Source: Candidatus Obscuribacterales bacterium | GTDB taxonomy: Bacteria; Cyanobacteriota; Vampirovibrionia; Obscuribacterales; Obscuribacteraceae | DNA length: 64,000 bases | Reading direction: 5' to 3' | Assembly: GCA_965228855.1 (NCBI GenBank) | Contig: CBDDIJ010000003.1 | Location: forward strand, 608,001-672,000 | Shown: one piece after another, positions 26,051 to 59,569 of the stretch | Numbering within the stretch: the first letter of the stretch is position 1 | How the letters are laid out: each line of letters starts with the position of its first letter | Notes under the pieces: generated by a model | Told to the model about the DNA's origin: nothing | The model's database searches: none | What the model saw: the letters and a program-made list of their open reading frames with translations, nothing else | Translations under genes and position numbers: made by a program

Positions 26051-26070
26051 GATCATCCTTTTGGTTCAAT
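26051..26070. promoter_or_regulatory. Island palindrome, degenerate site
   Basis: GATCATCC-TTTT-GGTTCAAT, 76 nt upstream of the USP gene. Confidence 0.45.
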
Positions 26071-26146
26071 TGCAATAAGCATTTTGAACGAAGAGGCTTT
26101 GCCGCGGTGATGCAAGAATTGATGCAGAACCGTAGGAGAGCGTGTT

Positions 26147-26641
26147 ATGAAAATTGTGGTTGCAGTTGATGATTCAGATTGTTCTCAATATTCAATTGAT
26201 TACATTTTGAAACGTGCTTGGAGCACCGATACTGAGTTTCTGGTTCTGAACGTCGTCGAACCAATTCCAGTAGAGGTGGGTGTCGGTTATATGCCACCGC
26301 CTAGTGGTGAGATAGAGCAGCGTTTTTATGACGAAAGTGCTGAAATGGTCGCAAAGGCTGCCGCACTTCTCCGCGACAAATTCCCTGAGCTAAAGGTTGA
26401 TGTTAAAGTAGCGACTGGTCTGGCAGCTGAAACTATTTGCAATGTTGCCTCTGCTTTTGATGCGGATCTGATACTAATGGGATCGCACGGTCGCAAAGGA
26501 ATCAGCCACTTTTTCTTGGGAAGCGTCGCTGAAGAGGTTTTGAAAAAATCTTCTTGTTCCGTCGAGGTCATTAAACGCAAAACCTCGAAGACTGTGACCA
26601 AGAGCGAAGATAAGAAGGAAAAGACGGGAGCATCTAAGTGA
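26147..26641 (+). CDS. Universal stress protein
   Basis: MKIVVAVDDS, ADLILMGSHGRKG..FFLGSVAEEV. Confidence 0.92.
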   Translation: MKIVVAVDDSDCSQYSIDYILKRAWSTDTEFLVLNVVEPIPVEVGVGYMPPPSGEIEQRFYDESAEMVAKAAALLRDKFPELKVDVKVATGLAAETICNVASAFDADLILMGSHGRKGISHFFLGSVAEEVLKKSSCSVEVIKRKTSKTVTKSEDKKEKTGASK

Positions 26642-27123
26642 GAATTATTCAGCCAGTTCGCGTGACACTAGGAGTGGTGACAACTCTTTTCGTGCTATCC
26701 AACGGCGCCTTTGCTAAACCGGCGGCTAAAAATGAGACGGTGAAGCAGGGTTCTGGTGGCGCCGTTCCGAAGAAGGTCAAGACCGAGAAGTCGGAAAACA
26801 GTTCCAAGACTTTGTCTGCTCAGACTGCCTCGTCCAAGGGGCGCAGGTTGTTCGAGTCCCATTGCGCTTCGTGTCATGCGGGCGGGGGGAATTTAGTGGT
26901 TCCGAAAAAGCCTGTAATCGGCTCTCAAGTGCTGGTTACCGGCGCTACGTTCAAGAGCTATCTTAATCAGCCCGTCGGAACCATGCCTCACTACGAGGAC
27001 CTCATCCGGGATGATGGTCTGTTGACCGAGCTATATACTTACGTCAAGTCGATGAAAGCGGCTTCTGTCGAGCAGAAGAATCAAACCGTTGTCGATAAGA
27101 AACAACCGCTTAAGCAAAAGTAG
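26638..27123 (+). CDS. Monoheme cytochrome c, c6/PetJ-like
   Basis: Signal peptide, G..LF...CASCHAGGGN..PKK, GTMP axial Met; start overlaps the USP stop. Confidence 0.8.
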   Translation: MRIIQPVRVTLGVVTTLFVLSNGAFAKPAAKNETVKQGSGGAVPKKVKTEKSENSSKTLSAQTASSKGRRLFESHCASCHAGGGNLVVPKKPVIGSQVLVTGATFKSYLNQPVGTMPHYEDLIRDDGLLTELYTYVKSMKAASVEQKNQTVVDKKQPLKQK

Positions 27124-27186
27124 TCGGACTGAGCATTACTGCAATGTCGTAAGCGGCGGGACCAGCGCTGAAAAATTTCTTCCTGG

Positions 27187-27206
27187 AATCATCCTTTAGG
27201 ATGATT
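27187..27206. promoter_or_regulatory. Island palindrome, perfect site (could also act as a terminator hairpin)
   Basis: AATCATCC-TTTA-GGATGATT between the convergent cytochrome c and hypE genes. Confidence 0.55.
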
Positions 27207-27207
27207 C

Positions 27208-28242
27208 CTAACAAATTCTGGGAAGTTGGTCTCCCGTCAGTTTATCGATAAGGCGTCTTCCGCCGATTGCCGTTCGACTGATGACTTTATTCTTGTCAGT
27301 TTCGGTGATTTTACCGATCACGACTGCATCCCTACCGGGAGCGTGTGTTTTTAGGGTTTGAACGACCTCGTCCGCTATACTCGGCTCAACGATGCAGATA
27401 AAGCGACCTTCGCAGGCTACATACAAAGGGTCGAGTCCGAGCAACTCGCATGCTCCGCGAACCTCCGGACAGATCGGAATATCGGAATCGTTAATCTCGA
27501 TTCCGACCGCGGAAGCTCCCGCAATTTCAGAGAGTATGGAGGCCAGACCTCCCCGGGTTACGTCCCTCATGACGTGAATGCCTGGTGCATATTTTGCTAG
27601 TTCGAGTGCGGCAAAGGTCAGGCATGTACTATCGCTGAGTAGTTCCGATTCGATCTCCAGATTTTCACGAGCGCACATGACTGCTATACCATGCCGTCCG
27701 ATATCTCCACTAACTATGAGGATATCTCCAGGCTTTGCACGTGATACTGCAGGTGGTGATTCGACTAGTATTGAACCGATGCCGGTCGTATTGATGTATA
27801 CGCCGTCACCGGCCCCTTTGTTCACAACCTTAGTGTCCGCTGCAACGGTGACAACCTGAGCCTGTCTACATGCTTCCGCGAAAGACTCCACTATGCTTTC
27901 CAGGTCTTTAATCAAAAATCCTTCTTCGATGATGAACGCTGCCGTCAAAAATTTTGGTCTTGCCAGGCGCATGGCAAGGTCGTTTACAGTGCCGTGTACA
28001 GCGAGAGAACCGATATTGCCGCCCGGAAAAAATATGGGTTTAACTACGAATGAATCGGTGGAAATTGCTACTCTATTGCTGTCGTTCTCGACCAAGACAG
28101 CGTCCTCTAAGTCGTTCAAAATCTTGTTTCCCAGGTGGGGCAAGAATATTCGCTCGATTAACTGTTCTGACAAACGTCCACCACTGCCGTGTCCCAGGCG
28201 GATAACATCATCAGGCTGAAATGGGATACCGCAAGACTTCAT
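27208..28242 (-). CDS. hypE: Hydrogenase maturation protein HypE
   Basis: HGSGG, TDSFVV.PIFFPGG.IG.LAV.GTVNDL, DTKVV, RDVTRGG, C-terminal PRIC. Confidence 0.95.
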   Translation of the reverse strand: MKSCGIPFQPDDVIRLGHGSGGRLSEQLIERIFLPHLGNKILNDLEDAVLVENDSNRVAISTDSFVVKPIFFPGGNIGSLAVHGTVNDLAMRLARPKFLTAAFIIEEGFLIKDLESIVESFAEACRQAQVVTVAADTKVVNKGAGDGVYINTTGIGSILVESPPAVSRAKPGDILIVSGDIGRHGIAVMCARENLEIESELLSDSTCLTFAALELAKYAPGIHVMRDVTRGGLASILSEIAGASAVGIEINDSDIPICPEVRGACELLGLDPLYVACEGRFICIVEPSIADEVVQTLKTHAPGRDAVVIGKITETDKNKVISRTAIGGRRLIDKLTGDQLPRIC

Positions 28243-28258
28243 GTCGGTTTAAACATCC

Positions 28259-29350
28259 TCAGTGATTTTTGAATCTGAAATAGTTAGAGCAGGTTCCCTC
28301 TACGGATACCATCGTCGCTCCGATGGGAGTTTCCGGTGTGCAGGCTTTGCCGAACTCCGGGCAATCAGTTGGTTTCTTATTCCCCAGAAGTATTTGATCG
28401 CTTATACATTGGCGGGGTTGCTGCTGTTTAATCTGCCGAGAAACGTCCGGAAACTCTTTCTCAGCGTCGAATGACGAAAATTTTTCAGATAATCCCAACC
28501 CGCTCAGTGGTATCACCCCCAATGCTCTCCATTCGCGGTCGCATGGGCTAAACACTTCGTTCACAACATCTTGCGCTACGTGATTGCCCACGTTCTCGAC
28601 AGCTCTGCTGTATTCGTTTACAACGCTTGGAGACCGACTCTCCAGCAGTTTTACACAAGTTGATAGCGCTTGCAGCAGGTCTATAGGCTCGAACCCTGCC
28701 ACTACAATCGGTATCGAGAAGTCTCTGGATAGTTTCTCGTATTGTTCTAAACCTGCAACAGTACAAACATGGCCCGGTCCAATGAGCGCCTGCACCTTGC
28801 ATTCTGGTTCGCTCAAGACCATGGAGCAGACTGGTGGTACGAGAACCTGTGCGGAGAGCACGAAAAAGTTTTCTAAGCCCATGTTGTGGGCATGTTTAAT
28901 CGCCATTGCATTAGCGGGCGCTGTAGTTTCAAAACCGACGGCAAAAAAAACGACTTTGCGATCTTGATGTTTTTTCGCGAGCTTAACTGCATCGAGCGGC
29001 GAATACACAATTCGGACGTCGGCTCCTTTTGCCTTCGTGGTCAGCAAATCTTCGCTCGTTCCTGGAACGCGGAGCATGTCACCAAAAGTGCATAATATAA
29101 CTTCCGATATATTGGCAATGCCGATTGCCCAGTCGATTAGCTGCACCGGCGTGACGCATACCGGGCAACCCGGACCGTGAACCAGATTTATAGATTCTGG
29201 AAGTAAATCTGGAATGCCGTACCTGAGAATCGTATGTGTTTGACCACCGCAGACTTCCATGATGGTCCATGGTTGTGTGCAAGCAACTTCAATTTCTTTC
29301 GAGATCTTCTTTGCCAACTCCAGGTCGCGGTACTCGTCGACATACTTCAT
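28259..29350 (-). CDS. hypD: Hydrogenase maturation protein HypD
   Basis: MEVCGGQTH, GPGCPVC, GFETT, PGHV, MVS.EG.C; ATGA overlap with the upstream stop. Confidence 0.95.
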   Translation of the reverse strand: MKYVDEYRDLELAKKISKEIEVACTQPWTIMEVCGGQTHTILRYGIPDLLPESINLVHGPGCPVCVTPVQLIDWAIGIANISEVILCTFGDMLRVPGTSEDLLTTKAKGADVRIVYSPLDAVKLAKKHQDRKVVFFAVGFETTAPANAMAIKHAHNMGLENFFVLSAQVLVPPVCSMVLSEPECKVQALIGPGHVCTVAGLEQYEKLSRDFSIPIVVAGFEPIDLLQALSTCVKLLESRSPSVVNEYSRAVENVGNHVAQDVVNEVFSPCDREWRALGVIPLSGLGLSEKFSSFDAEKEFPDVSRQIKQQQPRQCISDQILLGNKKPTDCPEFGKACTPETPIGATMVSVEGTCSNYFRFKNH

Positions 29351-30663
29351 AGCCAAGGTACTCCAGCCGCTTCTTTTTCGAGCGTCTCCCTGAAGTCCGG
29401 GTGAGCGATGCCGATGAGGGCTTTTGCTCGCGCTTTCAAATCTTTGCCCCAGAGATCAGCGATACCATATTCGGTTACAACATAATGGACGTCGCCACGT
29501 GATGTCACAACACCGCTTCCTCTGCTGAGATGCGTTACAAGCCTAGACACGCTACCGTTTTTAGCAGTTGATGGTAACGCGATAATCGGTCTTCCGTGCG
29601 TGGACCGCGCAGCACCTCTAATGAAATCTACTTGACCTCCGAAACCGCTGTACAGCTGCTCGCCGACGGAGTCTGCACAAATTTGTCCGCTCAGATCCAC
29701 CTGAAGGGCAGAGTTTATGGCTGTCATTTTGTTGTTCTGCGCGATGATGGAGGGGTCGTTTATATAATCGCTTGTTTGAAATTCAATTAGCGGGTTGTTG
29801 TCCACAAAGTCGTACAGTCGCTTTGAACCCATAACAAAAGACACTGCGATCTTTCCAGGCAAAACGCTTTTCTTATCGTTGGTAACAATGCCTGCTTCGA
29901 CAAGGTCGAGTACACCATCAGAGAACATCTCACTATGAATACCGAGATCCTTCTTGTCCATCAAGCATCGCAAAACAGCATCGGGTATTTCGCCGATACC
30001 CATCTGCAAAGTAGCACCATCATCTACTAGTGACGCCACGTTCTTTCCGATAGCTAACGACACTTCATCTGGTGGCTTACTTATGTGCTCCGGGAGCGGT
30101 CGATCTGTTTCAACAATATAGTCGAGCCTGCTCACGTGAACGAAGGAGCGTCCGAGCGTTCGAGGCATTTGTTTATTCACCTCAGCGATGACAATTTTTG
30201 CAGCCTTCCTGGCCGCAAGCGTGCAATCGACCGAGACGCCGAAACTGCAGTATCCATGCTGATCTGGGGGCGAAACTTGGATGAGGCAAACATCAAGAGG
30301 TCGTTTGCCTGAGAGAAACAACGTCGGAATTTCGCTCAGAAACATGGGTGTGTAACTTGCTCTGCCTTCGTTAACCGCTTGTCTAACATTGGCGCCTATG
30401 AACAGCGCGTGTACGTGGAAGGAATCTTTAAATTCCTTCTCCGTATACTTTGCCGGACCCATAGTGAGGATGTGATAGATTTCGACGTTCTTCAACTCGC
30501 CGGCGCGAGCGACAAGTGCGTCAATCAGAGGAACAGGCGCTGCCGCGTTGGAATGGACGTAGATACTCTGGTCCGAGTGAATCTGCCTAACCGCCTCTTC
30601 TGCGGACACGACCTTGCTCTTATATTCGTCCAACCACGTCTTTCTGATATTCGCGACCGTCAT
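29347..30663 (-). CDS. Acetyl-CoA hydrolase/transferase family (4-hydroxybutyrate CoA-transferase-like)
   Basis: DGATLQMGIG.IP, LGIHSEM (catalytic Glu), SGFGGQVDF.RGA, VVTEYG, IAHPDFR. Confidence 0.9.
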   Translation of the reverse strand: MTVANIRKTWLDEYKSKVVSAEEAVRQIHSDQSIYVHSNAAAPVPLIDALVARAGELKNVEIYHILTMGPAKYTEKEFKDSFHVHALFIGANVRQAVNEGRASYTPMFLSEIPTLFLSGKRPLDVCLIQVSPPDQHGYCSFGVSVDCTLAARKAAKIVIAEVNKQMPRTLGRSFVHVSRLDYIVETDRPLPEHISKPPDEVSLAIGKNVASLVDDGATLQMGIGEIPDAVLRCLMDKKDLGIHSEMFSDGVLDLVEAGIVTNDKKSVLPGKIAVSFVMGSKRLYDFVDNNPLIEFQTSDYINDPSIIAQNNKMTAINSALQVDLSGQICADSVGEQLYSGFGGQVDFIRGAARSTHGRPIIALPSTAKNGSVSRLVTHLSRGSGVVTSRGDVHYVVTEYGIADLWGKDLKARAKALIGIAHPDFRETLEKEAAGVPWL

Positions 30664-30681
30664 AAAGTCCTCGTCATTGCT

Positions 30682-30984
<303 letters not shown>

Positions 30985-30995
30985 TATTTTAATCC

Positions 30996-33470
30996 TCAGT
31001 CGACAAGTCTATCAGGTTCCCACATTCCAAGGTGACTTAACGCCGCGACCGCTTGACCGAGGGACAGGCCTCCGTCATTGATTGGTACCAGGCGGTTCCA
31101 GTAGACTTTGAATCCTGCGTCTCTCAGCTGAAAAATGGACATCTCCAACAGTAGTCGATTTTGAAAAACACCACCCGACAGACAGACAGTATTGAGATTT
31201 TGTCGGTCTCTAATCTCTTTGCAAACCTCTAGAATCATTGTTGCGGTCCAGTCGTGAAACCTTGTCGAAATCTCTCCTATGCTCTTGCCCTCAGCTAGAT
31301 CAAACAGAACGTCTGAAATGACTCCAGTTGTGTCGATGTCTAAGAACGGTTGCGGCTGCCATGGAGCGGTCGATGCACCAGCTTCTCTCCGCTGAAGAAC
31401 CAATGAATATTCGCCACCTATGCGACGACTCAGTGGCAGTTCTTGCGAATTAAGAAACAGCTCGGCCTCTCGCTGGAGCAAAACTGCCGCGTGACCCTCA
31501 TACTGATTGATATCGCATATTCCAAGCAGGCAGGCTACCGCGTCAAACAGCCGACCACAGCTGGTTGTTCTCGGACTTATGGATGAGTTCGCTACACTTG
31601 TCACATCAGAAACCAGTTTCTCTCCAAAGCGCTCGACCAGTCGTTCCAGAACGCGTTGCCTGCCGGCTGAGTTCTCAACGTTTACCAGAAAGCCCAAAGC
31701 CATCCGCCACGGATCCCTGATTGATGAGTTACCTCCAGGCATTTTTACCGGTTTTAATGCTGCTATTCTTGTAAATTTCGCCAGTGTACACAGCAGAAAC
31801 TCGCCGCCCCAAATGTTTCCGTCGGTACCATAACCGGTACCATCGAAAGCCACACCGATAACGGTATCATCCACGTGATTCTCCGCCATACAACTCACCA
31901 CATGCGCAAAGTGGTGTTGCACCGGTATCACCTTTTCTATCAAGTCTACCGAAAACGGAGGAGTGTCTTTCCTGGAAAGCCAGTTTGAAACGATTCTACT
32001 CGAGCCATAATCCGGATGCATATCCAGTGCGATTAATCGTGGCTCGATTTTGAATAGTCTGATGTAATCGTTCAACGTCTCGGTGAAAAAATGCAGTGAT
32101 TCAACGCTTTCTAGATCACCTATATGCTGGCTCAGGTAAGCCTTATCGTCGTGAACTAAACAGAAAGTGTTTTTCAAGTGTCCACCAACGGCCAGCATTG
32201 GCAGCTTCGCTCGATACGGCAGTTGAACAGCTTGTGGTGCAAAACCCCTTGCGCGTCGCACGACCATCGGCTTCTCAGCAACGATACTGCAAACGGTGTC
32301 ATCATATCGAGACACGATATCTCTGTTGTTGAGCAAAAATCCGTCGGCAATGGTCTTGAGTCTCGCTAGGGCTTCCCGGTTTCCGGCTGCAATTGGTTCT
32401 TCACTAACATTGCCACTTGTGACTACGAGCGGTAGTTTTGTCTTGCGTAGAAGCAGGTGATGCAACGGCGTATAAGGCAGCATGACTCCGAGGGTATTCG
32501 TTGTCGGAGCCACTTGATTCGAAATCCGGTGTTGATTGTTTTTCTTGTTGAGCAAGACTATTGGTCTGGCTGAACAAGTCAGAAGCTCCGATTCTCTCTG
32601 AGAAATATCGCAGATGGCCTGTGCGGCTTCCAGGTCCGAGACCATCAAGGCGAAGGGCTTTGCTTCTCGTCCTTTACGCTCCCTCAGCCTTTTAACGGTG
32701 TCGTCATTAGTGGCATCACAAATCAACTGGAAACCGCCGAGTCCTTTGACTGCGATTATTGAGCCGGAGCGGATCTCCAAAACTGCCCGAGTCAGCTCAT
32801 CCTCGGAGCTATCGTTTTTCAACGCACTTAATTGCATCTGTTGAAGCTCTGGGTTTCCACCCTTCTCGAACCAAAGGGCAGGGCCGCATCTCGGACAAGC
32901 TGTGGGTTCCGCATGAAAGCGTCTGTCGGCAGGATCTTCGTACTCTAGGCTACAGTCTTCGCACATCGGAAAGCAGGCAAGACTCGTTTCAGACCTATCG
33001 TAAGGCAGATTTTTGATTACGGTAAAACGCGGTCCGCAGTCAACGCAATTTAGGAAAGGATAGTTGAATCGCCTGTCTTTATCGGAAAAAAGTTCCTTTA
33101 AACACGCTTCGCAAGTCGCTATATCCGGTGGAATATTTGCTCCCTGAGTTGTGAGAACCTGGCTTTCTATAATTCTAAAGCTGTTCACGTCAATGGAACT
33201 ACCGCACTGGCCTTCGGTACGCTCAATGCCATCGATTCTCGCAAGAGGCGGCAGTTCTTCGGACATTCGAGAGATAAACGTCGCAATCTCTTCAGAAGTG
33301 CCGATGATCTCAACCTCCACAAATGCTCCCTTGTTGAGAACCATACCTCTGAGCCCCAAAGCGGTTGCCAGACGGTATATAAACGGGCGAAAGCCCACTC
33401 CCTGCACGACTCCATAAATCCTCAGAATTGAGTGATGAAGCCCTTCAGTTTCCATTGAGTGAATAGCCAA
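30996..33470 (-). CDS. hypF: Carbamoyltransferase HypF
   Basis: GVVQGVGFRPF, zinc fingers (CEAC..NCVDCGPRF; CEDC..CPRCGP), KGLGGF, QHHFAH, NDGGLSLGQ. Confidence 0.95.
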   Translation of the reverse strand: MAIHSMETEGLHHSILRIYGVVQGVGFRPFIYRLATALGLRGMVLNKGAFVEVEIIGTSEEIATFISRMSEELPPLARIDGIERTEGQCGSSIDVNSFRIIESQVLTTQGANIPPDIATCEACLKELFSDKDRRFNYPFLNCVDCGPRFTVIKNLPYDRSETSLACFPMCEDCSLEYEDPADRRFHAEPTACPRCGPALWFEKGGNPELQQMQLSALKNDSSEDELTRAVLEIRSGSIIAVKGLGGFQLICDATNDDTVKRLRERKGREAKPFALMVSDLEAAQAICDISQRESELLTCSARPIVLLNKKNNQHRISNQVAPTTNTLGVMLPYTPLHHLLLRKTKLPLVVTSGNVSEEPIAAGNREALARLKTIADGFLLNNRDIVSRYDDTVCSIVAEKPMVVRRARGFAPQAVQLPYRAKLPMLAVGGHLKNTFCLVHDDKAYLSQHIGDLESVESLHFFTETLNDYIRLFKIEPRLIALDMHPDYGSSRIVSNWLSRKDTPPFSVDLIEKVIPVQHHFAHVVSCMAENHVDDTVIGVAFDGTGYGTDGNIWGGEFLLCTLAKFTRIAALKPVKMPGGNSSIRDPWRMALGFLVNVENSAGRQRVLERLVERFGEKLVSDVTSVANSSISPRTTSCGRLFDAVACLLGICDINQYEGHAAVLLQREAELFLNSQELPLSRRIGGEYSLVLQRREAGASTAPWQPQPFLDIDTTGVISDVLFDLAEGKSIGEISTRFHDWTATMILEVCKEIRDRQNLNTVCLSGGVFQNRLLLEMSIFQLRDAGFKVYWNRLVPINDGGLSLGQAVAALSHLGMWEPDRLVD

Positions 33471-33473
33471 AAT

Positions 33474-33917
33474 CTAGCGTCCTTCGACGTTGTCGTCTGC
33501 ATCTTGGAGTTCAATACCAGTGATGTTCAACTCCTCGCCTCTCAGCATTGTCTCCAGGCTGCCACCGCAAATGGTGCATGCAAAATATGAGTCCGGCAGC
33601 GGATGATACTCGTGCTTCTGAGCGCAAACCGCGCGAGCCTCTACCAAATTGATTTTCAATGACGCATCTTTGAGTTCTTGCGAATCTTTCCTGAGCGATT
33701 CAAATGCGAAAGTTAAGCTTTCCGGATCGATGTTTCTGAACTCGCCTATCTCGACTTTGATGCTCACAACTCGCGGCTTGCCTGATGTATGAGGGTGCCC
33801 GAGTCCTTCCGCCTTCAGATTTGAGTTTCCCATGGACGCTAATTCTGCGGCAAACCTGTTAGAGAGCGCCTCTGACGCTTTAGTTAAAATTGCAATTGCT
33901 ACGGTCGCTTCATGCAT
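33474..33917 (-). CDS. hypA: Nickel metallochaperone HypA (atypical)
   Basis: MHE start, IGE...DPESL.FAF, CTICG, GEEL; first CxxC altered to CAQKH. Confidence 0.85.
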   Translation of the reverse strand: MHEATVAIAILTKASEALSNRFAAELASMGNSNLKAEGLGHPHTSGKPRVVSIKVEIGEFRNIDPESLTFAFESLRKDSQELKDASLKINLVEARAVCAQKHEYHPLPDSYFACTICGGSLETMLRGEELNITGIELQDADDNVEGR

Positions 33918-34488: not shown

Positions 34489-34495
34489 AAGATGG

Positions 34496-34927
34496 TCAGG
34501 CTGTTTGCAGTTGTTCTACGGTGACTAGTTTAACAACTTCGACAGAGCAAGGCGCGTCATGCACCACCCCGGATGCCACGCTGCCAATTGTTTCCGGTCG
34601 TACTCCGGTATCTCCGTGCGAGCCGAGAACAATCAAGTCTGCTTTCCAGCGTCGAGCCTCCTGAACTATTGTCGCTCTGGCGTCGCCGGTGAAGATTTCG
34701 CTGTCGATTTCTTGCACCTCTTTAAGACGCTCTTTCAATCGGGAGACACGATCGTCGAGAATTGTTTTAGCTTGATGACCAAGTTCTAAATCAGTTTCGT
34801 AGTTGCCAGTGGGGCGGACAACTGTAATTACTCTGAATTGGGTGTCCTTCGACCAGCTTCGTTGCGTGATGTTTTTCAGAATCTCGCAGGCGTAGCTGGA
34901 ACTATCAAGGGCTATCAAGATTTTCAT
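34496..34927 (-). CDS. Universal stress protein
   Basis: MKILIALDSS, ADLIVLGSHG, GSVA..V...APCSVEVV; GGAGG RBS. Confidence 0.9.
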   Translation of the reverse strand: MKILIALDSSSYACEILKNITQRSWSKDTQFRVITVVRPTGNYETDLELGHQAKTILDDRVSRLKERLKEVQEIDSEIFTGDARATIVQEARRWKADLIVLGSHGDTGVRPETIGSVASGVVHDAPCSVEVVKLVTVEQLQTA

Positions 34928-34961
34928 ATTCCCTCCAATCACAATTAGCAAATTAGTGTGT

Positions 34962-50093: not shown

Positions 50094-50108
50094 GAAGAGG
50101 GGCTGCAA

Positions 50109-51726: not shown

Positions 51727-51761
51727 AAGGATGATACAGCCTTTGTTTCTGGCAAGCCCAT

Positions 51762-53390
51762 TTAAGCCATCTCTACATTATTGAGAGTGAACGAAAACGT
51801 GCTTCCCTTGCCGACTTCGCTATCGCACCAGAGTTTGCCTCCATGTGATTCGATGATCTTGCTACAGAGATAAAGCCCCAGACCCGTACTCGCGTAGTAT
51901 CGACCTCCGGATGATGCCTGCCAGAATCTCTGAAATAATTTAGGTTTGTCCGCATCTGAGATGCCCTTGCCTGTGTCCGTTACGGAAACTGTTGTCATTT
52001 GTTCGTCCTGAGCTAAATCTATACTGATTGAGCCTTTCGATTGCGTGTATTTGAGCGAGTTGTCGATAAGGTTTTGCATTACTCTGCGGATTTCGTCTAT
52101 GTCACAGATAACCGGAATGTTGCTTTCCGAAGATGTGAACGTCAGGTTAATCTGTTTCTGTTTCGCCAGAGGGGATAGCTCGGCCACTAACGTTTCGATA
52201 GAAGCAGGGAGGTCTGTCGGTAGCATGGTCAGCTGTTTCACACCGCTGTCGTATTTATAAACATCAAGCAAGGTGAGCACCATCTGGTACATAGCGTTGT
52301 TGCTCTGAAGAATAGTTTCAATAATGCTTCTCTGAGAATCTTGAATTGGACCGAAGTCACCTTCCATCAGAAGCTTCAGAGCCCGGTTCGCGGCCAGGAT
52401 CGGCGTTTTCAGATCATGCGTGAGGGTCGCAACGAAGTCTTCGCGTTGCTGTTGTAAGCGAACACTATCAGTTACCATCGTAAAGGTTGCCACCAGCGCC
52501 GATACCACATCATTCCTCTCCTTGATGGGCCAGATTGCCCAGTCGAAAAACGATTCATGATCGGAATTGAAAAATGTCAATTTAGCGGCTGATGCTCGTT
52601 TTGCCACTCCAAAATTGAGGGCTTCTTCCAGGTCCGAACGCGGCAGGTCTTCGCACAATTCAAATATGGATCGCCCAATAATCTGCTCGTCAGAGTCAAT
52701 AAAATTGAGAAACTCTGAATTTGCCTCTAAGCACTTGAAGTCTGGCGAAAGTCTGACAATGCCGATGGGTGCGTTTTCCACGATGCTCTTGCTGACGGTT
52801 CGTTCAGTCTCCAACCTCGAGATCATGTCCTTGTGTTCTCGGATCGCCTGAATTTTGGCGGTGTTATAGGTATCGATCGCTAAGCCCATATCAAAGAATA
52901 TAAGTTTGGTAAGCGAGTCGACTAGCCGATTTGAGAGTTCAGGATCATCTTTGAATTCCTCCACAATGAGTGTGCGCAGGTACTTGAGTGCTCGGTAGTA
53001 CGCCCCTAAGTACCAGCGTGTGTCCAGACCAATTCGATAGTGTGTCTTCCCTACAATCAGGCGGTTGTCAACGTACTCACGATCGTACTTGCCGCACGTC
53101 AGTTTCAGAAAATATTGGCGCTGTCCTGCCTTGGCTCGGTTTAAGATTTCTTCATTCGGAAAGAAACTAGCGGTGTCCTCGTGAGCCAGAAAGTGGTCGT
53201 AAAGGAAGTCCATGAGCCCGTCTACATTGCGAGCGACAAGCTGATCGAGAAGAGCTATGTTGGCCTCATCATCAGGCCCCAGTCCTAGCCACACTTTTCG
53301 GTTTTCGATCTCCTCATCAGACATCTCCAGGTGAATGTCAGGAATGGCTGGGTAATTATAGTCAGAGAATCTCGTAGTCGGCTCTGCCAT
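51762..53390 (-). CDS. Globin-coupled sensor histidine kinase (protoglobin-PAS-HisKA-HATPase)
   Basis: HemAT-like globin (FLYDH, Q..YF..L..G.YD..Y...R..VG.THYRIGL...WY.GAY), PAS, THDLKTP H-box, NLIDNSLKY, DTGKGI, TGLGL. Confidence 0.88.
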   Translation of the reverse strand: MAEPTTRFSDYNYPAIPDIHLEMSDEEIENRKVWLGLGPDDEANIALLDQLVARNVDGLMDFLYDHFLAHEDTASFFPNEEILNRAKAGQRQYFLKLTCGKYDREYVDNRLIVGKTHYRIGLDTRWYLGAYYRALKYLRTLIVEEFKDDPELSNRLVDSLTKLIFFDMGLAIDTYNTAKIQAIREHKDMISRLETERTVSKSIVENAPIGIVRLSPDFKCLEANSEFLNFIDSDEQIIGRSIFELCEDLPRSDLEEALNFGVAKRASAAKLTFFNSDHESFFDWAIWPIKERNDVVSALVATFTMVTDSVRLQQQREDFVATLTHDLKTPILAANRALKLLMEGDFGPIQDSQRSIIETILQSNNAMYQMVLTLLDVYKYDSGVKQLTMLPTDLPASIETLVAELSPLAKQKQINLTFTSSESNIPVICDIDEIRRVMQNLIDNSLKYTQSKGSISIDLAQDEQMTTVSVTDTGKGISDADKPKLFQRFWQASSGGRYYASTGLGLYLCSKIIESHGGKLWCDSEVGKGSTFSFTLNNVEMA

Positions 53391-53525
53391 GGCGTTTTGC
53401 CCCTTTCCTAAGAAGATGTCGTGCTCAACTCAGCGGGTCGTGATGTTGACATGAGGTGACCCTGACTATTTATTATCGCAATTCGGAAATATAATGGGGT
53501 CAGATGGCTGCACTTCTACTACATA

Positions 53526-54293
53526 ATGCAAGGCGAAGTTTTCATGGGCGAATCTCCTGGAAGTAATCAAATCAATGTTCTCCTGGTCGAAGACCATCAG
53601 CTCACCCGAATTGGACTGAAAACTGTGCTCGAGCGAACAGATGATATCAAGGTGATCGGCGAAGCCGAGAACGGCGAGGAAGCAATTCGGAAAGTCGGTG
53701 AGTTGAAACCTGATGTTGTCCTAATGGACGTGGGAATGCCGATAATGGACGGAATTGAGGCTGTCAATAACATTCAGCAACAGTATCAGAATGTAAACAC
53801 GATTATGCTGACATCTCATGATAACGAGCAGGATATCTTGGCTTCATTGTCGGCCGGTGCCAGTGGATACTGCCTGAAAGATGTTGATCCGCATCGTTTA
53901 TATAGTGCCATCAGGGCAGTGAACGGGGGAGATATCTGGCTGGACTCGTCTATAGCAAGCCGGGTAATGAAAATCCAGCAAGCTCGAATGATGAAAGCCG
54001 AAACAGGTCACAGTGAGCATGCCAGAGGTGAGACTGCCGTTCAGCATGCTACCGCTGGTGGTGCGGGTGTCAAAAATCAGCCACAGCTGCCACCCCTTCC
54101 GGACGCGCTTTCTCCCAGAGAGATGGAAGTACTCTCTCTACTCGTGGAGGGATTGTCGAACCAGGAAATCGCGGACAAGCTGATCATCTCGTTGGCAACC
54201 GCGAAAACGCACGTTCGAAACATATTGAATAAGCTTGCTGTCGATGATAGAACGCAAGCAGCTGTGCAAGCGATGCGCCGCGGTCTGGTTTAG
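53526..54293 (+). CDS. NarL/LuxR-family response regulator (alternative start 53544)
   Basis: LVEDH, PDVVLMDVGMP, GYCLK; LSPREMEVL..L..GLSNQEIA..L.IS..TAKTHV.NIL.KL. Confidence 0.93.
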   Translation: MQGEVFMGESPGSNQINVLLVEDHQLTRIGLKTVLERTDDIKVIGEAENGEEAIRKVGELKPDVVLMDVGMPIMDGIEAVNNIQQQYQNVNTIMLTSHDNEQDILASLSAGASGYCLKDVDPHRLYSAIRAVNGGDIWLDSSIASRVMKIQQARMMKAETGHSEHARGETAVQHATAGGAGVKNQPQLPPLPDALSPREMEVLSLLVEGLSNQEIADKLIISLATAKTHVRNILNKLAVDDRTQAAVQAMRRGLV

Positions 54294-54325
54294 TACCGAC
54301 CGTTTCAATCCGAATTCTAGAACCG

Positions 54326-56743
54326 TTACTTAGATGGAACCGGAATTCGGCTGTCTTGTGCTTCTTCTCTGGCGATTAACAGGATCGTTTTGATAACGGT
54401 ATCCTCATTTAGTGAAATGCTGTCTATCTTTTGTTTCACTAAAAATCTGGTGAACTCCGGATAGTCGCTGGGCGCCTGTCCGCAAATACCGATTTTGCGC
54501 CCGCGCTTTTGTGCACCAGCGATTGCCATTTCAATCGCTCTGGTCACAGCAGGATTTCGTTCATCAAAAAGTTCGGCCAGACCTTCGTTGTCTCGATCGA
54601 CTCCCAGAATCAATTGAGTCAGATCGTTTGAACCGATTGAAAAGCCGTCAAATATTTCCGCAAATTCGTCGATTGCCAGGACATTTGATGGCAATTCGCA
54701 CATCACGTAGATTTCTAAACCATTAGCGCCTTGTTCCAAACCGTTTTTTGAAAGTTCGCGAATGACCTTTTTGCCCTCGGCAACTGTGCGGCAGAATGGA
54801 ACCATGAGTTTCACATTGGTCAGACCCATTTGCTCGCGCACCTGTTTCAGAGCTTTGCATTCCAGGGCGAACCCGTCTTTATAGTCGGGACTGTAATAAC
54901 GCGATGCGCCCCTGAAGCCAATCATCGGGTTGTCTTCGCTAGTTTCAAACTGTCGACCGCCGAGTAGATTGGCGTACTCGTTCGTCTTAAAATCAGAGAG
55001 TCGCACTATCACCGGTCTCGGATAAAATGCTGCGGCAATTGTCGAAATTCCTTCGGCGAGCTTCTGAACGAAATAGTCTGTTTTTGAAGAATAATGTTTT
55101 GTCAGCTCGACTATTTGTTCGCGAGCGTGTTCGTCGGTGAGTTTGTCGAAGCGCGTAAGCGCCAGTGGATGAACTTTAACTTCATTCGCGATTATGAATT
55201 CTTCCCGAGCTAAGCCGACTCCAGCCACCGGTAGTTTCGCCAGATTGAATGCTTGGTCTGGATTGCCCACGTTAACCATAACTTGGGTCGCGGTCGACGG
55301 GATATTTTCTAAATCCAAAATTTGTTTTTGAAAAGAAAGCTTGCCATCGTATACGATACCGGTATCGCCTTCTGCGCAGCTGACGGTGATCGCTTGACCC
55401 TGTTCTAAAACATCGGTGGCACGCTGGGTTCCTACGACGCAAGGCACACCGATTTCACGGCTGACGATGGCCGCGTGGCAAGTTCTTCCGCCTCGATTGG
55501 TGACAATCGCCGCTGCCCGTTTCATAATCGGTTCCCAATCCGGGTCAGTCATGTCGGCGACTAAGACATCTCCGTCCTTGAAGTCGACGAGCTCATGCAT
55601 TGAGTGGATCACGCGAACGCAGCCAGCGCCGATCTTCTCTCCAATTGATCTACCGGATAGAATGGCTTTGCCTTTATTTTCCAGTCTGTAAGACTCAATT
55701 GTTCGTCTGTTTGAACTGGAGTATACGGTTTCAGGACGGGCTTGAACTATATAAAGTTTGCCATCGTCACCGTCTTTCGCCCACTCGATATCCATCGCTG
55801 TCGAACGACCGAGTCTTTTTGAATAATACTTTTCGATCTGAACCGCCCATTCTGACAGTTTCAGAACATCTTCGTCGCTGATACTAAACCGCTCCTGACG
55901 CTCGGGAGCGACATCTATGTTTTTCGTGGTGCGAGATCCGTGTCCGGAGTAAATCATTTGCAGTCTTTTGGTACCGACTTTTCGACGCAAAATTGGTTTA
56001 AAACCCTGTTCGAGTGTGGGTTTAAAAACTATGAATTCATCCGGATCGACGCGGCCGGCGACAACATTTTCACCAAGTCCGTAAGCCGACGTAATGAGAA
56101 CGACGTCGCGAAAACCACTTTCCGTATCGAGTGTGAATATGACGCCTGCTGCGCCACGGTCTGACCTGACCATCTTCTGCACCGCGATTGCCAGCTTGAC
56201 GGACATGTGGTCGAAACCTTTGTCTAATCTGTATGAGATCGCTCTCTCTGTGAATAAGGATGCGAAGCAGTTTAAACATGCATTTAGCAGTTCAGCTTCG
56301 CCGCGTATGTTGAGAAAACTCTCTTGCTGACCGGCAAAGGAGGCATCCGGCAAGTCTTCTGCGGTCGCGCTCGAACGCACCGCGACGTCCGTAGCTTCGC
56401 CATACTCTTTCGAAAGTTGTTGATACGCTGCCACTATATCTTTGGCGAGCGCATCAGGAATTCCCGCTCCCTTAATCAGCGATCTCGCTTCTAAGGCCTT
56501 CTTATTGAGATCGTCAAGATCGTTTTTGTTCACCGAACCGAGCAACTGTACGAGCTTCTGGCGGATACCGCCCTCGTCCAGCAGCAGCGAATACGCATCG
56601 GCGGTTATGCAGAAGCCATTTGGCACGGAAATTCCCGATGATGCCATTCCGCGAGTCATCTCGCCAAGGGAGGCGCTTTTCCCGCCCACGAGCGGAATGT
56701 CGTCTATTGACACCTGATTGAACCAGCGAATAAAATTCGACAT
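54326..56743 (-). CDS. ppsA: Phosphoenolpyruvate synthase (pyruvate,water dikinase)
   Basis: VGGK.ASLGEM, VRSSATAEDLP.ASFAGQQ, GGRTCHAAI phospho-His, FSIGSNDLTQ, GICGQAPSD. Confidence 0.95.
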   Translation of the reverse strand: MSNFIRWFNQVSIDDIPLVGGKSASLGEMTRGMASSGISVPNGFCITADAYSLLLDEGGIRQKLVQLLGSVNKNDLDDLNKKALEARSLIKGAGIPDALAKDIVAAYQQLSKEYGEATDVAVRSSATAEDLPDASFAGQQESFLNIRGEAELLNACLNCFASLFTERAISYRLDKGFDHMSVKLAIAVQKMVRSDRGAAGVIFTLDTESGFRDVVLITSAYGLGENVVAGRVDPDEFIVFKPTLEQGFKPILRRKVGTKRLQMIYSGHGSRTTKNIDVAPERQERFSISDEDVLKLSEWAVQIEKYYSKRLGRSTAMDIEWAKDGDDGKLYIVQARPETVYSSSNRRTIESYRLENKGKAILSGRSIGEKIGAGCVRVIHSMHELVDFKDGDVLVADMTDPDWEPIMKRAAAIVTNRGGRTCHAAIVSREIGVPCVVGTQRATDVLEQGQAITVSCAEGDTGIVYDGKLSFQKQILDLENIPSTATQVMVNVGNPDQAFNLAKLPVAGVGLAREEFIIANEVKVHPLALTRFDKLTDEHAREQIVELTKHYSSKTDYFVQKLAEGISTIAAAFYPRPVIVRLSDFKTNEYANLLGGRQFETSEDNPMIGFRGASRYYSPDYKDGFALECKALKQVREQMGLTNVKLMVPFCRTVAEGKKVIRELSKNGLEQGANGLEIYVMCELPSNVLAIDEFAEIFDGFSIGSNDLTQLILGVDRDNEGLAELFDERNPAVTRAIEMAIAGAQKRGRKIGICGQAPSDYPEFTRFLVKQKIDSISLNEDTVIKTILLIAREEAQDSRIPVPSK

Positions 56744-56773
56744 TTTTTCTCTCCCTTTGTTATCTTCTTCGTA

Positions 56774-58426
56774 CTATTTCGCGAGAATAGCCGCCAGATC
56801 CTTTGATGGTTCAGTCACGAGCTTCAGTTGATAGCCTTCCGACAGAGTCTTCAAGATAGTTGGTGTGACGAACGCTGGTGCATTCGGGCCGATGCGAATA
56901 TCTTTTATTCCTAAGTGAAGCAGTGAGAGTAGTACCGCCACGGCTTTCTGCTCAAACCAGGAAATGATGAGCGACAGCGGAAGGTCGTTTACCGAACAAC
57001 CAAATGCGTTTGCAAGGGCGGAAGCGATAACGACTGCAGAGTGTGCATCGTTACACTGACCCAGATCAAGCAAGCGAGGAATTCCACCGATGTCGCCAAA
57101 TTCGATATCGTTGAAGCGGTATTTGCCGCAGCCGAGGGTCAAAATGACGCAGTCTTCGGGTACTTGCTCTGCAACTTCGGTAAAATAATTTCGTGCGAAT
57201 TCGGCTCCATCACAGCCGCCAATTAAGAAGAAGTGTTTGATTTTTCCTTGCTTCACCGCTTCAATAACTTTATCGGCGACGCTCAACACTGCATGGTGTC
57301 CGAATCCGACCGTGATACTTTTCTCCGGCTGATCGTCAGGGAAGCCCGGCAATTCAAGCGCTTGTTCGATCAATCTAGAAAAGTCATACGCTGCGACTTT
57401 CGGTATGCCTTCCCACCCAACAACATCTATGGTGTACAGCCTGTTTTTGTAAGACTCGGCAGGTGGTTTCAAACAATTAGTCGTCATGACTATAGGACCC
57501 GGGAATAGCTCGAATTCTCTCACCTGATTTTGCCAGGCTGTTCCGTAATTTCCTCGCAGATGCGGGAACCGTTTGAGAACCGGGTATCCATGCGCCGGCA
57601 GCATTTCTCCGTGAGTGTAAACGTCAATGCCTTTATCTTCTGTTTGACGCAATAGCTCAAGCAGGCTTCTCATATCGTGTCCTGATACGAGGATGCATTT
57701 ACCCTTCTTATGGGTTGTGAGAACCTGCGTCGGTACTGGAGAGCCGAGTGTCTCCGTATGAGCCTGGTCCAGCAATTCCATGACCCGCAAATTCATTGCA
57801 CCTGTTTTCAAACAAAGATCCAACAAGCGCGATTCATCAGGTTCTTGCTCGGCCAGGCAGGCGAGAGACTCGTGCACAAAAGCGAAGACTTGTTCGTCAA
57901 CATAGCCGAGCATTGCGGCGTGATGCGCATAAGCCGCCATACCCTTGATTCCGTAAACTGCCATTTCACGTAGACCAGTGAGGTCCGGTCCCTGATCCCT
58001 GATGCTGCCGAGGATTGAAATTGTATTGGCGAAATCAAGCAACTCCTGCTTTGTCTTGGGCACAACCCAGACAGCTGGACCTGAAAATTCGCGAGGATTT
58101 ACACCTCTTGCCTTGCAAGCACACAGATACATTTCATGTGCGCGGTCGCGTAACTGACCAAGGTATTCGATATATTTGACGTGCTCATCCTCGTCGAAGT
58201 TGACGTTGGTGAGCGTCATGAATAGGGCTGCCAGTGTGGTCTCGTTAATACGTTCATCAGTGGTTCCCAGGAGCCTGGCTTCATGAGCGTATACGGAAAT
58301 TCCTTTGACAAGATAGATGATGACGTCTTGCAGATTCGCCGTTTCCGTTGTTTTTCCACAAACACCGAGGCTGGTGCACGCTACACACTGTGCCGTTTGC
58401 TCACACTGGTAACAGAACATACTCAT
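56774..58426 (-). CDS. hcp: Hybrid cluster protein (hydroxylamine/NO reductase)
   Basis: MFCYQCEQT...CT..GVCGK, SGHD, YTHGEMLPAH, TTNC, GGCDG, GCGKYRF, GQCND, WFEQKA. Confidence 0.95.
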   Translation of the reverse strand: MSMFCYQCEQTAQCVACTSLGVCGKTTETANLQDVIIYLVKGISVYAHEARLLGTTDERINETTLAALFMTLTNVNFDEDEHVKYIEYLGQLRDRAHEMYLCACKARGVNPREFSGPAVWVVPKTKQELLDFANTISILGSIRDQGPDLTGLREMAVYGIKGMAAYAHHAAMLGYVDEQVFAFVHESLACLAEQEPDESRLLDLCLKTGAMNLRVMELLDQAHTETLGSPVPTQVLTTHKKGKCILVSGHDMRSLLELLRQTEDKGIDVYTHGEMLPAHGYPVLKRFPHLRGNYGTAWQNQVREFELFPGPIVMTTNCLKPPAESYKNRLYTIDVVGWEGIPKVAAYDFSRLIEQALELPGFPDDQPEKSITVGFGHHAVLSVADKVIEAVKQGKIKHFFLIGGCDGAEFARNYFTEVAEQVPEDCVILTLGCGKYRFNDIEFGDIGGIPRLLDLGQCNDAHSAVVIASALANAFGCSVNDLPLSLIISWFEQKAVAVLLSLLHLGIKDIRIGPNAPAFVTPTILKTLSEGYQLKLVTEPSKDLAAILAK

Positions 58427-58483
58427 TTATAAAACCTCGCAATAGCTCATTTTGTAATCGTCGCAAATCAGCCGCTCCTACGG

Positions 58484-58503
58484 AATTAGTCGAAAGGATG
58501 ATT
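58484..58503. promoter_or_regulatory. Island palindrome, perfect right half-site
   Basis: AATTAGTC-GAAA-GGATGATT, 57 nt upstream of hcp. Confidence 0.55.
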
Positions 58504-58519
58504 CTTTGCCTGATGAGAC

Positions 58520-59440
58520 TCAGGCGATCAGATACAGACCGCTTTTTCTGAGTCTTTTGGATTTTGTCACTTCGGTCGTGCAATGCGTATGCATTGCAAC
58601 TCCTTCAGAGACGCTACCAAGCACGAGTTTCTCGAAGCTTTGTTTGCCATGTGAACCGAGCATGATCAGGTCTGCCGGCCACTCTGCTGCATATTCGAGA
58701 ATCCGCTCTTTCGGATCACCTAATAAAACCTGACCGTTCGCGACCTTTTGCTCGTACTTCGTGTTGATTATGTCTGCCACTGAGTTTATCCATTCTTGAT
58801 GTTTGCGAACGACTTCATTGAAGCTGTCCACGATGTTCTCAACGGCTAGGGTGTCGTCATCCAAAAACAGACCGGGCCCCAGGTTTGGTACAACGTGAAT
58901 ACAAGTGAATCTGGTGTTTTCAGCCCATGGAAAAGAGAGCACATGGTCCAATAAATGTTTCGAGTGTTCGGACTCTTCGAGTGCTATAAGAACGTTGTTA
59001 CGCGTCGTGTCAGAAGTCGGTTGCGGTGTAGCGCGTACGATTCGCACCGCACATGGTGCATGAAGAAGTAGGCCACGAGATACGCTGCCTAAGAAGAACC
59101 GTTTAACGCCGCTGCGTCCGTGTGATCCTACTACGAGTAAATCTGCAAGCCAATTTCTGCATAGTTTAAGAATTGCGTCTACGGCGAAGCCGTCGAGTAT
59201 ATCCGCGCTGATGTCAGCATCAGGATGTGCAGCAGCCAGTTCCGTCACCGCTTCCTGGACCAGCTCGTTCGCCTTTCGATATTCTCGCAGTTGTACGTCA
59301 GGTAAGGCTGTGAAGGGGTGCCACAGGTCTACTGCAGTCGCTACTTTAATTTCCGTGCCCACCGGACAGACCATTGACTTTAGCCCTCTAAGGGCTTCGC
59401 GCGAACAGGCAGAGCCATCGGTCGCAAATACAATTCTCAT
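58520..59440 (-). CDS. Universal stress protein, tandem two-domain
   Basis: Two ADL.V.GSHG...LGSVS units. Confidence 0.92.
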   Translation of the reverse strand: MRIVFATDGSACSREALRGLKSMVCPVGTEIKVATAVDLWHPFTALPDVQLREYRKANELVQEAVTELAAAHPDADISADILDGFAVDAILKLCRNWLADLLVVGSHGRSGVKRFFLGSVSRGLLLHAPCAVRIVRATPQPTSDTTRNNVLIALEESEHSKHLLDHVLSFPWAENTRFTCIHVVPNLGPGLFLDDDTLAVENIVDSFNEVVRKHQEWINSVADIINTKYEQKVANGQVLLGDPKERILEYAAEWPADLIMLGSHGKQSFEKLVLGSVSEGVAMHTHCTTEVTKSKRLRKSGLYLIA

Positions 59441-59549
59441 ACAAGACCCCTTTCACAATCCAGTGCATTCAGCTCGTGCGTCGTCGCGTTATTTCTTCCT
59501 GGGCGATCGTACATCTGGATATAGCATCGCAAAAGTACGAAGATGAGCG

Positions 59550-59569
59550 CATCATCCCAGCGACGTATT
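59550..59569. promoter_or_regulatory. Island palindrome, degenerate site
   Basis: CATCATCC-CAGC-GACGTATT upstream of the tandem USP. Confidence 0.4.

Follow-up and report, generated by a model that had tools for sequence, protein, structure and literature searches.

The 64,000-nt stretch of DNA analysed here (the window) comprises C3:608001–672000 of the 8.2-Mb, six-contig genome of a Candidatus Obscuribacterales bacterium of the Vampirovibrionia (genome G000). It contains a 20-bp palindrome, AATCATCC-N4-GGATGATT, which recurs in its intergenic regions and is predicted to be the operator of a NarL/FixJ-type response regulator encoded among the copies. In bases 26000–64000, Pfam and NCBIfam searches identified six universal stress protein (USP) genes and hypA, hypC, hypD, hypE and hypF, together with genes for an acetyl-CoA hydrolase/transferase, an AMP-forming ligase, c-type cytochromes, FtsH, a P-type ATPase, a CDF transporter, a dPGM-type mutase, hcp, phosphoenolpyruvate (PEP) synthase, a group-3b-like [NiFe] hydrogenase, an arsC-like/ACR3 pair and several small unknown open reading frames (ORFs). 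The regulator gene forms a divergent pair with the gene of a globin-coupled histidine kinase. The coordinates of the palindrome copies and of the genes discussed below are collected in Table 1.

The motif was searched for by mismatch, with the expectation taken from 100 dinucleotide shuffles. Seven copies with at most three mismatches are present in the window, compared with a mean of 0.41 in the shuffles (the largest count was 3, and none of the 100 shuffles reached seven). The six near-consensus copies named in the original prediction were all recovered at their positions. A position weight matrix (PWM) was built from 16 intergenic motif copies of G000, and the seven copies score between 15.6 and 32.1 bits with it. 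All seven lie between ORFs, and no match of at least 12 bits in the window falls within an ORF. The information content of the motif sits in positions 1–8 and 13–20, mostly in TCATCC/GGATGA, and is concentrated at positions 3–8 and 13–18. From centre to centre, the TCATCC core is 10 bp away from the GGATGA core. The spacer is nearly information-free (at most 0.19 bit per position), as are the flanks (at most 0.09 bit). Bases 1–26000 contain no copy at up to three mismatches. The intergenic placement, the freely varying spacer and the motif-free first 26 kb had all been proposed earlier and were borne out. The start codons that face the sites are 57, 88, 90/191, 217/240 and 252 nt away, in line with the proposed distances of about 55–270 nt, with the exception of the copy at 27187, which has no gene downstream. 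Four further sites had been described as having one good half. Among these, the site at 58484 proved to be a fair match and those at 37715 and 26051 weak ones, while the position 59550 (4.8 bits) is indistinguishable from background and was rejected as a site.

Table 1. Palindrome copies and genes of the window (window coordinates; mismatches are counted against the consensus and bits are PWM scores)
Feature	Position	Strand	Mismatches	Score (bits)	Context
Perfect palindrome AATCATCCTTTAGGATGATT	27187–27206		0	32.1	Between convergent gene ends
Tandem pair, proximal site	35659–35678		2	20.7	217 nt upstream of minus-strand USP-USP-unk192-hyp gene string
Tandem pair, distal site	35682–35701		1	26.8	
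Site before gpmA-like mutase gene	46683–46702		2	22.8	252 nt upstream; phased −10 TATCAT at 46723–46728
Divergent-region site	48585–48604		1	25.8	90 nt from unk129 (+), 191 nt from unk110 (−); phased −10 TACTCT at 48625–48630
Site before Cys-rich 144-aa ORF	49328–49347		3	19.1	88 nt upstream
Site before hcp	58484–58503		3	15.6	Left half degenerate; 57 nt upstream
Weak site, divergent region	37715–37734			12.3	Between AMP-binding enzyme gene (−) and cytochrome c gene (+); phased CATAAT on the minus side at 37689–37694
Weak site before USP-cytochrome c pair	26051–26070			10.3	76 nt upstream
Weak site, divergent region	40551–40570			12.8	Between ftsH (−) and P-type ATPase gene (+); absent from the original prediction
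NarL/FixJ-type response regulator (Response_reg/REC + GerE helix-turn-helix), predicted palindrome binder	53526–54293	+			
Globin-coupled histidine kinase (Protoglobin + HisKA + HATPase_c), predicted sensor	51762–53390	−			
Gene string predicted as target: two USPs, unk192, hypA, hypF, hypC, acetyl-CoA hydrolase/transferase, hypD, hypE	27208–35441	−			
Predicted target hcp (hydroxylamine reductase/hybrid cluster protein), then PEP synthase	54326–58426	−			Same strand
Predicted target dPGM-type phosphoglycerate mutase-like (gpmA-like) gene	46955–47626	+			
unk129, conserved 129-aa Cys-containing protein	48695–49084	+			Best-conserved site
Four-subunit group-3b-like [NiFe] hydrogenase genes	59584–63723	−			hypB-like ORF starts upstream, at the window end

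Across the whole genome, 13 sites with at most two mismatches were found, compared with none for the reversed control motif, and 11 of the 13 are intergenic (intergenic DNA makes up 11% of the genome by a crude ORF call). The half-swapped control gave two matches and the direct-repeat control six, none of the latter intergenic. With the PWM, 58 matches (29 intergenic) reached 14 bits, compared with 9 (2 intergenic) for the reversed PWM, and 22 matches (16 intergenic) reached 18 bits, compared with none. Ten of these 22 lie within C3:634–763 kb, which represents 1.6% of the genome, and six are inside the window. When every 5-mer inverted dyad with a spacer of 0–12 was scored de novo in the intergenic DNA of C3:634–763 kb relative to the rest of the genome, only three dyads were enriched, TCATC-N6, ATCAT-N8 and CATCC-N4, and all three are registers of this motif. 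The cluster of sites extends about 90 kb beyond the window end, and scattered members occur elsewhere in the genome. The sites thus reach at least 90 kb past the window, and they are kept across the family (see below), so the notion of a regulon confined to an island did not hold. A horizontally acquired island was considered and rejected, since the GC content is flat across the window (0.475–0.519) and the cluster is conserved across genera. Three tandem pairs of sites spaced 22–23 bp centre to centre were found in G000 (C3:643659/643682, corresponding to 35659/35682 of the window, 672816/672839 and 1694690/1694712). This spacing of approximately two helical turns suggests cooperative binding of two dimers.

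Among the weaker matches, a related palindrome with TCACCC/GGGTGA-like arms was observed at C2:1975446, C2:974506, C5:1244809 and C2:1980162. The copy at C2:1975446 is located 134 nt upstream of a paralogous receiver-GerE (REC-GerE) regulator gene (C2:1975603–1976304), whose product is 50% identical to the island regulator overall and 66% identical in the DNA-binding domain. This palindrome may be a second, related operator.

The position of the sites relative to genes is strongly biased. The 26 intergenic matches in G000 that score 15 bits or more comprise 15 in tandem regions, 10 in divergent ones and a single one, the copy at 27187, in a convergent region, although convergent regions account for 17% of intergenic bases. 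The other 25 face a gene start, with a median distance to the start codon of 113 nt. Uniform occurrence downstream of genes had been named beforehand as the pattern that would speak against an operator; the motif is instead rare, clustered and placed at gene starts. These data also bear on an explanation in which the palindrome is a structural repeat (REP-like, the end of a miniature inverted-repeat transposable element or a terminator hairpin) that is not recognised by any sequence-specific promoter protein. The perfect copy at 27187 has features of such an element, as it is located 1 nt beyond the hypE stop codon (at 27208) and between convergent genes, the cytochrome c gene on the other side ending at 27123, and together with its GG/CC flanks it could fold into a 10-bp stem (−15.6 kcal/mol). 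However, this copy is not followed by a T-tract and gives no terminator call, the window contains no Rfam match at or above the gathering score, and the flanks are unrelated among sites, so the palindrome is not part of a longer repeat. Furthermore, the arm changes across 88 sites comprise 169 one-sided changes, 20 two-sided non-complementary changes and only 11 two-sided complementary ones. Compensatory changes are therefore scarce, which indicates that the sequence of the arms, and not their pairing, is conserved, and that the palindrome is neither a hairpin nor a REP element. Given also the phasing with −10 hexamers described next, we regard the structural repeat as largely refuted and very improbable.

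The relation of the sites to promoter elements was analysed in 51 sites, 32 from G000 and 19 from the regulator-flanking DNA of relatives (the latter without an ORF filter), which corresponds to 102 flanks. When all offsets were scanned, −10-like hexamers formed a single sharp peak exactly 20 nt past the motif (offset 21). At this offset 13 of the 102 flanks carry TANNNT, compared with about 1.2 elsewhere; NANNNT is present in 28 (compared with 7.3; P = 5e-10) and TATAAT with up to two mismatches in 20 (compared with 4.6; P = 3e-8). Since the matrix ends short of the −10 position, the phasing does not depend on the way in which the sites were selected. The same phasing was observed in 35 other intergenic sites of relatives (NANNNT in 16 of 70 flanks versus 4.8, P = 1.6e-5; TANNNT in 8 versus 0.84). 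A co-oriented gene is found within 450 nt of 34 of the 44 flanks with a phased −10 and of 69 of the 128 flanks without one (Fisher P = 0.007). If transcription starts about 7 nt 3′ of the −10, as we assume for these predicted starts, the palindrome would span approximately −52 to −33, with its centre near −42.5. No conserved −35 element was found, as the flanking bases carry no information. The −42.5 centre and the missing −35 element together point to the layout of a class II activator promoter. Recognition of the GGATGA half as the −35 element of an alternative sigma factor was also considered and rejected: this half ends 22 nt before the −10, too far for a −35/−10 pair, and a palindrome is not expected of a sigma factor.

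The motif was then sought in 24 further genomes of the family and in 16 genomes from other families of the class, using an 18-nt core with at most one mismatch. The family genomes contain 110 matches, compared with two for the reversed control, and 22 of the 24 have at least one. In the 16 genomes of other families there are 10 matches compared with 8 for the control, which is background; those in G028, G035, G039 and G040 fall within ORFs such as thrS and appear to be chance matches. In the 1.9-Mb genome G033, also from another family, a perfect copy (AATCATCCTTAAGGATGATT, L050:3092–3111) is intergenic and located 137 nt upstream of a cytochrome c gene; the closest regulator there is 49% identical (74% in the DNA-binding domain), and the kinase lacks a match to the globin region. 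This copy could be due to chance or a remnant of wider use of the motif. Two matches of 21.8 bits at the same place within dnaE in G001 (L072) and G004 (L085) were discarded as conserved coding sequence. On this basis, the predicted regulon is a feature of the whole family and not just of the island.

The best-conserved site precedes unk129. In four of the seven orthologous promoters (G000, G001, G005 and G019) the palindrome is located 86–91 nt before the ATG and is accompanied by a phased hexamer (TACTCT, TAAGTT, TATTCT or TATCCT), while the other upstream DNA is unrelated. Two of the remaining three promoters have a single half-site about 100 nt upstream, and one is siteless. In G016 (L034), a copy with a 3-bp spacer, AATCATCC-GGT-GGATGATC, was noticed about 190 nt upstream of the unk129 orthologue, the expected position being occupied by one half-site. 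Further loci of relatives were picked by motif match, so the following counts illustrate recurrence and not rates. As in G000, sites adjoin hcp (G001, G004 and G022) and an M17_N-like 224-aa gene (G005 and G012). They also adjoin USP genes in G001, G002, G016, G020 and G022, RIC/ScdA-hemerythrin genes in G005 and G012, globin and gpmA-like genes in G002, cytochrome c genes in G022 and, twice, Hsp20 in G020 only. In G005 and G022, sites also adjoin Rrf2 genes, which are accompanied by RIC/ScdA and cytochrome genes. Upstream of hyp genes, sites were found in G001, G005 and G011.

Both members of the regulator–kinase pair are conserved along with the motif. In each of the 11 loci of relatives that were examined, the kinase and regulator genes are direct neighbours, surrounded by USP, hyp, hydrogenase, PEP synthase, P-type ATPase, FtsH and cytochrome genes with sites between them. 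In G001, G007, G020 and G022, three or four matches with at most one mismatch are located within about 45–85 kb of the regulator gene, and the density of sites is highest around the pair in every genome mapped. The recognition region of the regulator, LIISLATAKTHVRNILNKLAVDDRTQAAV, is identical in 10 of 11 orthologues of different genera, even though linkers and N-termini vary, and it differs in three paralogues of the same genome. When only the DNA-binding domain was used as the query, 19 of 25 family genomes showed an identity of at least 84%, and matches outside the family did not exceed 78%. A contig start truncates the kinase orthologue (72–74% identical) in G003 and G006, where the regulator gene is probably unassembled. 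When these two are counted, the 20 relatives with the pair contain 105 matches, compared with five in the four in which the pair was not found (G008, G009, G013 and G014). One of the latter, G013, is a 7.7-Mb genome of 94% completeness with a single match.

Among solved chains, the regulator matches VraR (E = 6e-47) and NarL (E = 2e-34); DevR (3c3w; E = 2.6e-30, receiver domain only) ranks sixth, behind three VraR sequences, NarL and ChrA. No NCBIfam equivalog cut-off is reached. The kinase contains a Protoglobin domain (E = 2.6e-35), and its N-terminal 190 residues align with the Geobacter globin-coupled sensor (2w31), AfGcHK (5ohe) and HemAT (1or4). The proximal His (in THYRIGL) and the distal Tyr (in LYDHF) are in register with those of all three structures, and the kinase is therefore predicted to be a haem-based gas sensor.

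The enrichment of the motif, its intergenic bias, its placement on the side of gene starts, its phasing with the −10, the lack of stem covariation, the conserved orthologous promoters and the co-occurrence with the pair all support the reading of the palindrome as an operator. The original prediction, in which an operator without a recognised counterpart controls the genes of the island together, probably by way of the NarL-type regulator at 53526–54293, fits every computational test that was run. With high confidence, although from sequence data, we conclude that the motif is a sequence-specific operator at activator-dependent promoters. That the regulator of the island binds it, and that O2 or nitric oxide (NO) is the signal, is what we infer from the arrangement of the locus. 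In the proposed mechanism, the globin haem would sense O2, and perhaps also NO or carbon monoxide (CO), and the globin-coupled kinase would phosphorylate the NarL-type regulator. A dimer of the regulator would bind the two TCATCC half-sites, one helical turn apart, and recruit RNA polymerase from −42.5 as a class II activator. The predicted induced set consists of USPs, Hyp maturation proteins, the group-3b-like hydrogenase, hcp, PEP synthase, the gpmA-like mutase, a ribosome hibernation factor, hemA and small conserved proteins and, in relatives, would include Hsp20, RIC/ScdA and globin genes. The content of this regulon (hydrogenase and its maturation genes, hcp, RIC, USPs and the hibernation factor) indicates activation under hypoxia or NO. 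The full chain, from the palindrome as operator of the adjacent NarL-type regulator, through control by the globin kinase, to activation of a hypoxia/NO-stress regulon, is in our judgement somewhat more probable than the alternatives taken together.

Several observations weigh against this chain. The PWM was trained on the genome that it was used to scan, the ORFs come from a crude greedy longest-ORF caller, the relatives of the family are related to one another and are no independent samples, and the −42.5 position depends on predicted starts. Among the sequencing runs listed for window bases 46001–56000, none is recorded as RNA. A phased −10 is present on at least one side in only 24 of the first 51 sites. 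It is absent in the direction of hcp at all four hcp-linked sites (58484 of the window, L070:2557, L082:2482 and L057:2504), whose distance to the hcp start ranges from about 57 to 165 nt across the four genomes. The sites that lack a phased −10, including the hcp-linked ones, would therefore act in another register or have no function, and a different register, or joint control with another factor, may apply to hcp. The perfect copy at 27187 is the strongest site, yet it is located at no promoter. G011 has the pair and no strict match, with only 13–16-bit sites nearby, and in G027, from the sister family, a homologous pair adjoins hypF and hypC and no site of at least 11 bits is present in the 11 kb examined.

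Other observations on the same side concern the identity of the binder. The genome encodes at least ten other REC-GerE regulators, from which computation alone cannot single out the binder; the kinase–regulator intergenic region of G000 (53391–53525) contains no site of even 7 bits; and G009 has three matches without the pair. In the maps of the relatives there is likewise no site of at least 13 bits between the two genes, and autoregulation is therefore not visible here, unlike in DosR. Together with the Rrf2 genes that adjoin sites in G005 and G022, and with hcp and RIC, which are classical NsrR targets in other bacteria, these points would fit a true activator operator that is bound by another protein, either a NarL-type paralogue or an unrelated dimeric helix-turn-helix protein, for example an Rrf2/NsrR-like NO sensor, with the pair being merely co-located members of the regulon. 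However, the three Rrf2 genes of G000 are all on another contig, C2, far from any site, and an Rrf2/NsrR-like binder finds no support in this genome. Bases 26000–64000 encode no further DNA-binding regulator. The peak of site density at the pair, the nearly invariant recognition helix of the orthologues and its divergence in the paralogues, and the way in which matches follow the pair across genomes also argue against a different binder, which we consider unlikely.

A further explanation retains the same regulator but assigns it mainly the role of a repressor or roadblock, which would sit on the −35 region as long as the kinase is active (O2-bound, for instance) and be released in hypoxia. AfGcHK-type kinases are reportedly switched on by O2 binding, which would be the opposite of the logic required for activation of an anaerobic regulon; DosS and DosT, in comparison, are active when deoxy. 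The hcp-linked sites without a phased −10 toward hcp, and the copy at 27187, which could be a roadblock between convergent genes, would also agree with repression. On the other hand, the promoters have a −10 but no conserved −35, so that they appear to be activator-dependent, and the strict 20-bp phasing is typical of class II activation, while repressor sites are usually found at variable places over complete promoters. We therefore regard repression as improbable, more so than a different binder, and favour activation by the island regulator. As for the copy at 27187, a phased −10 is absent on both of its sides, and no counterpart was seen at the hypE end in G001; a roadblock, a looping anchor, a decoy or an antisense promoter are candidates for its role.

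The predicted targets in the window are in agreement with most of the co-regulated set proposed earlier, as sites precede USP, hyp, hcp and gpmA-like genes; for the cytochromes, however, only the weak sites at 26051 and 37715 were found. Four sites (13.3–20.8 bits) are located just beyond the window at C3:672487–672937, upstream of the hydrogenase genes and between the hypB-like ORF (−) and a USP pair (+). Elsewhere in G000, sites precede further USPs, the S30AE hibernation-factor gene, a cytochrome b/bd-like cluster, a ferredoxin-containing pair, a two-domain glyoxalase-fold gene, hemA and a SOUL haem-binding gene. The product of unk129 has no match in Pfam or NCBIfam, and its only family lead in Atlas is C_GCAxxG_C_C-like and weak (0.86). 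Its orthologues (in L030, L046, L040 and L036) abut the globin kinase gene in G001, G005, G019 and G020, and unk129 may have an accessory role in the signalling system. In the window, a Cys-rich 144-aa ORF, an arsC-like low-molecular-weight phosphatase gene and an ACR3/SBF-type transporter gene (49436–51726) are located between unk129 and the kinase gene; given the direct contact of the two genes in those four relatives, this group looks like an insertion. The motif-free first 26 kb contains arginine genes with ArgR, TPR proteins, an SNF2 helicase and a PAS kinase with a non-DNA-binding receiver. The argR-argC-argJ-argB string (17933–21916, minus strand) and a ParE-family toxin ORF (12535–12885, minus strand) are found in this part.

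Comparison with known operators shows that the geometry of the motif is familiar but its sequence is not. The predicted promoters resemble class II activator promoters such as those of FNR and CRP (−41.5), in which a dimer site about 42 bp upstream replaces the −35 element, with the reservation that the starts here are predicted. The FNR and CRP boxes (TTGAT-N4-ATCAA and TGTGA-N6-TCACA) are unlike the motif, and no Crp/Fnr-family protein is present among the window ORFs, in agreement with the earlier statement that the motif is neither of these boxes. Arms separated by 4 bp are also found in the sites of NreC (TAGGG-N4-CCCTA) and ComA (TTGCGG-N4-CCGCAA), and this geometry, typical of GerE-type dimers, speaks for the island regulator as the binder. 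The NsrR box, which we take to be an 11-1-11 repeat, appears to be different, and the GGATGA core is presumably similar to the core of the MalT box, another GerE-type target, which we mention as a lead only. In the literature outside curated regulon databases, no description of the motif or of any Obscuribacterales regulon was found. In terms of gene content, the lxa locus of Burkholderia cenocepacia is reportedly also a large USP-rich chromosomal cluster that is switched on at low oxygen. It belongs to another phylum, its regulator is said to be of a different type, and we know of no motif in common.

The kinase resembles AfGcHK of Anaeromyxobacter (PDB 5OHE) as well as HemAT and GsGCS in its sensor globin with a proximal His and a distal Tyr, and it shares with AfGcHK the fusion of this globin to a HisKA/HATPase kinase core. 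In contrast to AfGcHK, whose partner regulator to our knowledge has no DNA-binding output and no known regulon, the partner here possesses a GerE helix-turn-helix domain and can be assigned a candidate operator and regulon. In the literature searched, no globin-coupled kinase was found whose partner is a DNA-binding NarL-type regulator with a defined operator. If confirmed, the system would provide a transcriptional read-out for globin-coupled histidine kinases, the outputs of which are poorly known. The physiology of these mostly uncultured relatives of cyanobacteria has been deduced from gene content; a named operator with its predicted promoter geometry and a sensor/regulator pair make oxic/anoxic switching experimentally addressable at about 30 predicted promoters.

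The closest parallel is with DosR/DevR-DosS/DosT of Mycobacterium and the related OsdR of Streptomyces. Both systems combine a haem-based sensor kinase (predicted here) with a NarL/GerE-type regulator. The DosR sites are likewise 20-bp palindromes with arms 4 bp apart that are located over the −35 region, some of them in tandem about two helical turns apart (22–23 bp here). The gene content appears to overlap in part, with many USPs, a P-type ATPase, ferredoxin, an S30AE factor, hydrogenase/hyp genes and, in the relatives of G000, Hsp20. In G000 itself, this dormancy-type content is represented by the sites before USPs, S30AE, ferredoxin, hyp and hcp, while the P-type ATPase has only the 12.8-bit site. 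The DosRS system of M. tuberculosis is described as inducing about 50 genes upon hypoxia, CO and NO (PMC10034137). Several differences set the present system apart. Its sensor is a Protoglobin domain, as opposed to the tandem GAF domains of DosS/DosT, its regulator resembles DevR no more than it does VraR or NarL, and no autoregulatory site was found. Its half-site is TCATCC (AATCATCC), whereas that of DosR is GGGAC; the DosR box has the consensus TTSGGGACTWWAGTCCCSAA and shares only its geometry with the palindrome. The lineage is Vampirovibrionia/Obscuribacterales and not Actinobacteria. The predicted system thus resembles DosR/DevR in logic and, in part, in gene content but differs in sensor domain, regulator lineage and DNA word. 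One possible reading, which we put forward tentatively and hold to be somewhat less probable than its opposite, is that the non-photosynthetic Obscuribacteraceae possess a dormancy-type hypoxia/NO programme with the first globin-coupled kinase for which an operator and a regulon are defined (TCATCC-N4-GGATGA at −42.5, read by a NarL-type activator), that this programme, comprising USPs, a hydrogenase and its maturation genes, hcp, a hibernation factor and a small conserved Cys protein encoded beside the sensor gene, would be an independent invention of a DosR-like system, and that the 27187 copy would have an architectural or roadblock role. Were this the case, it would represent a further example of convergence on a DosR-type dormancy regulon, outside the Actinobacteria.

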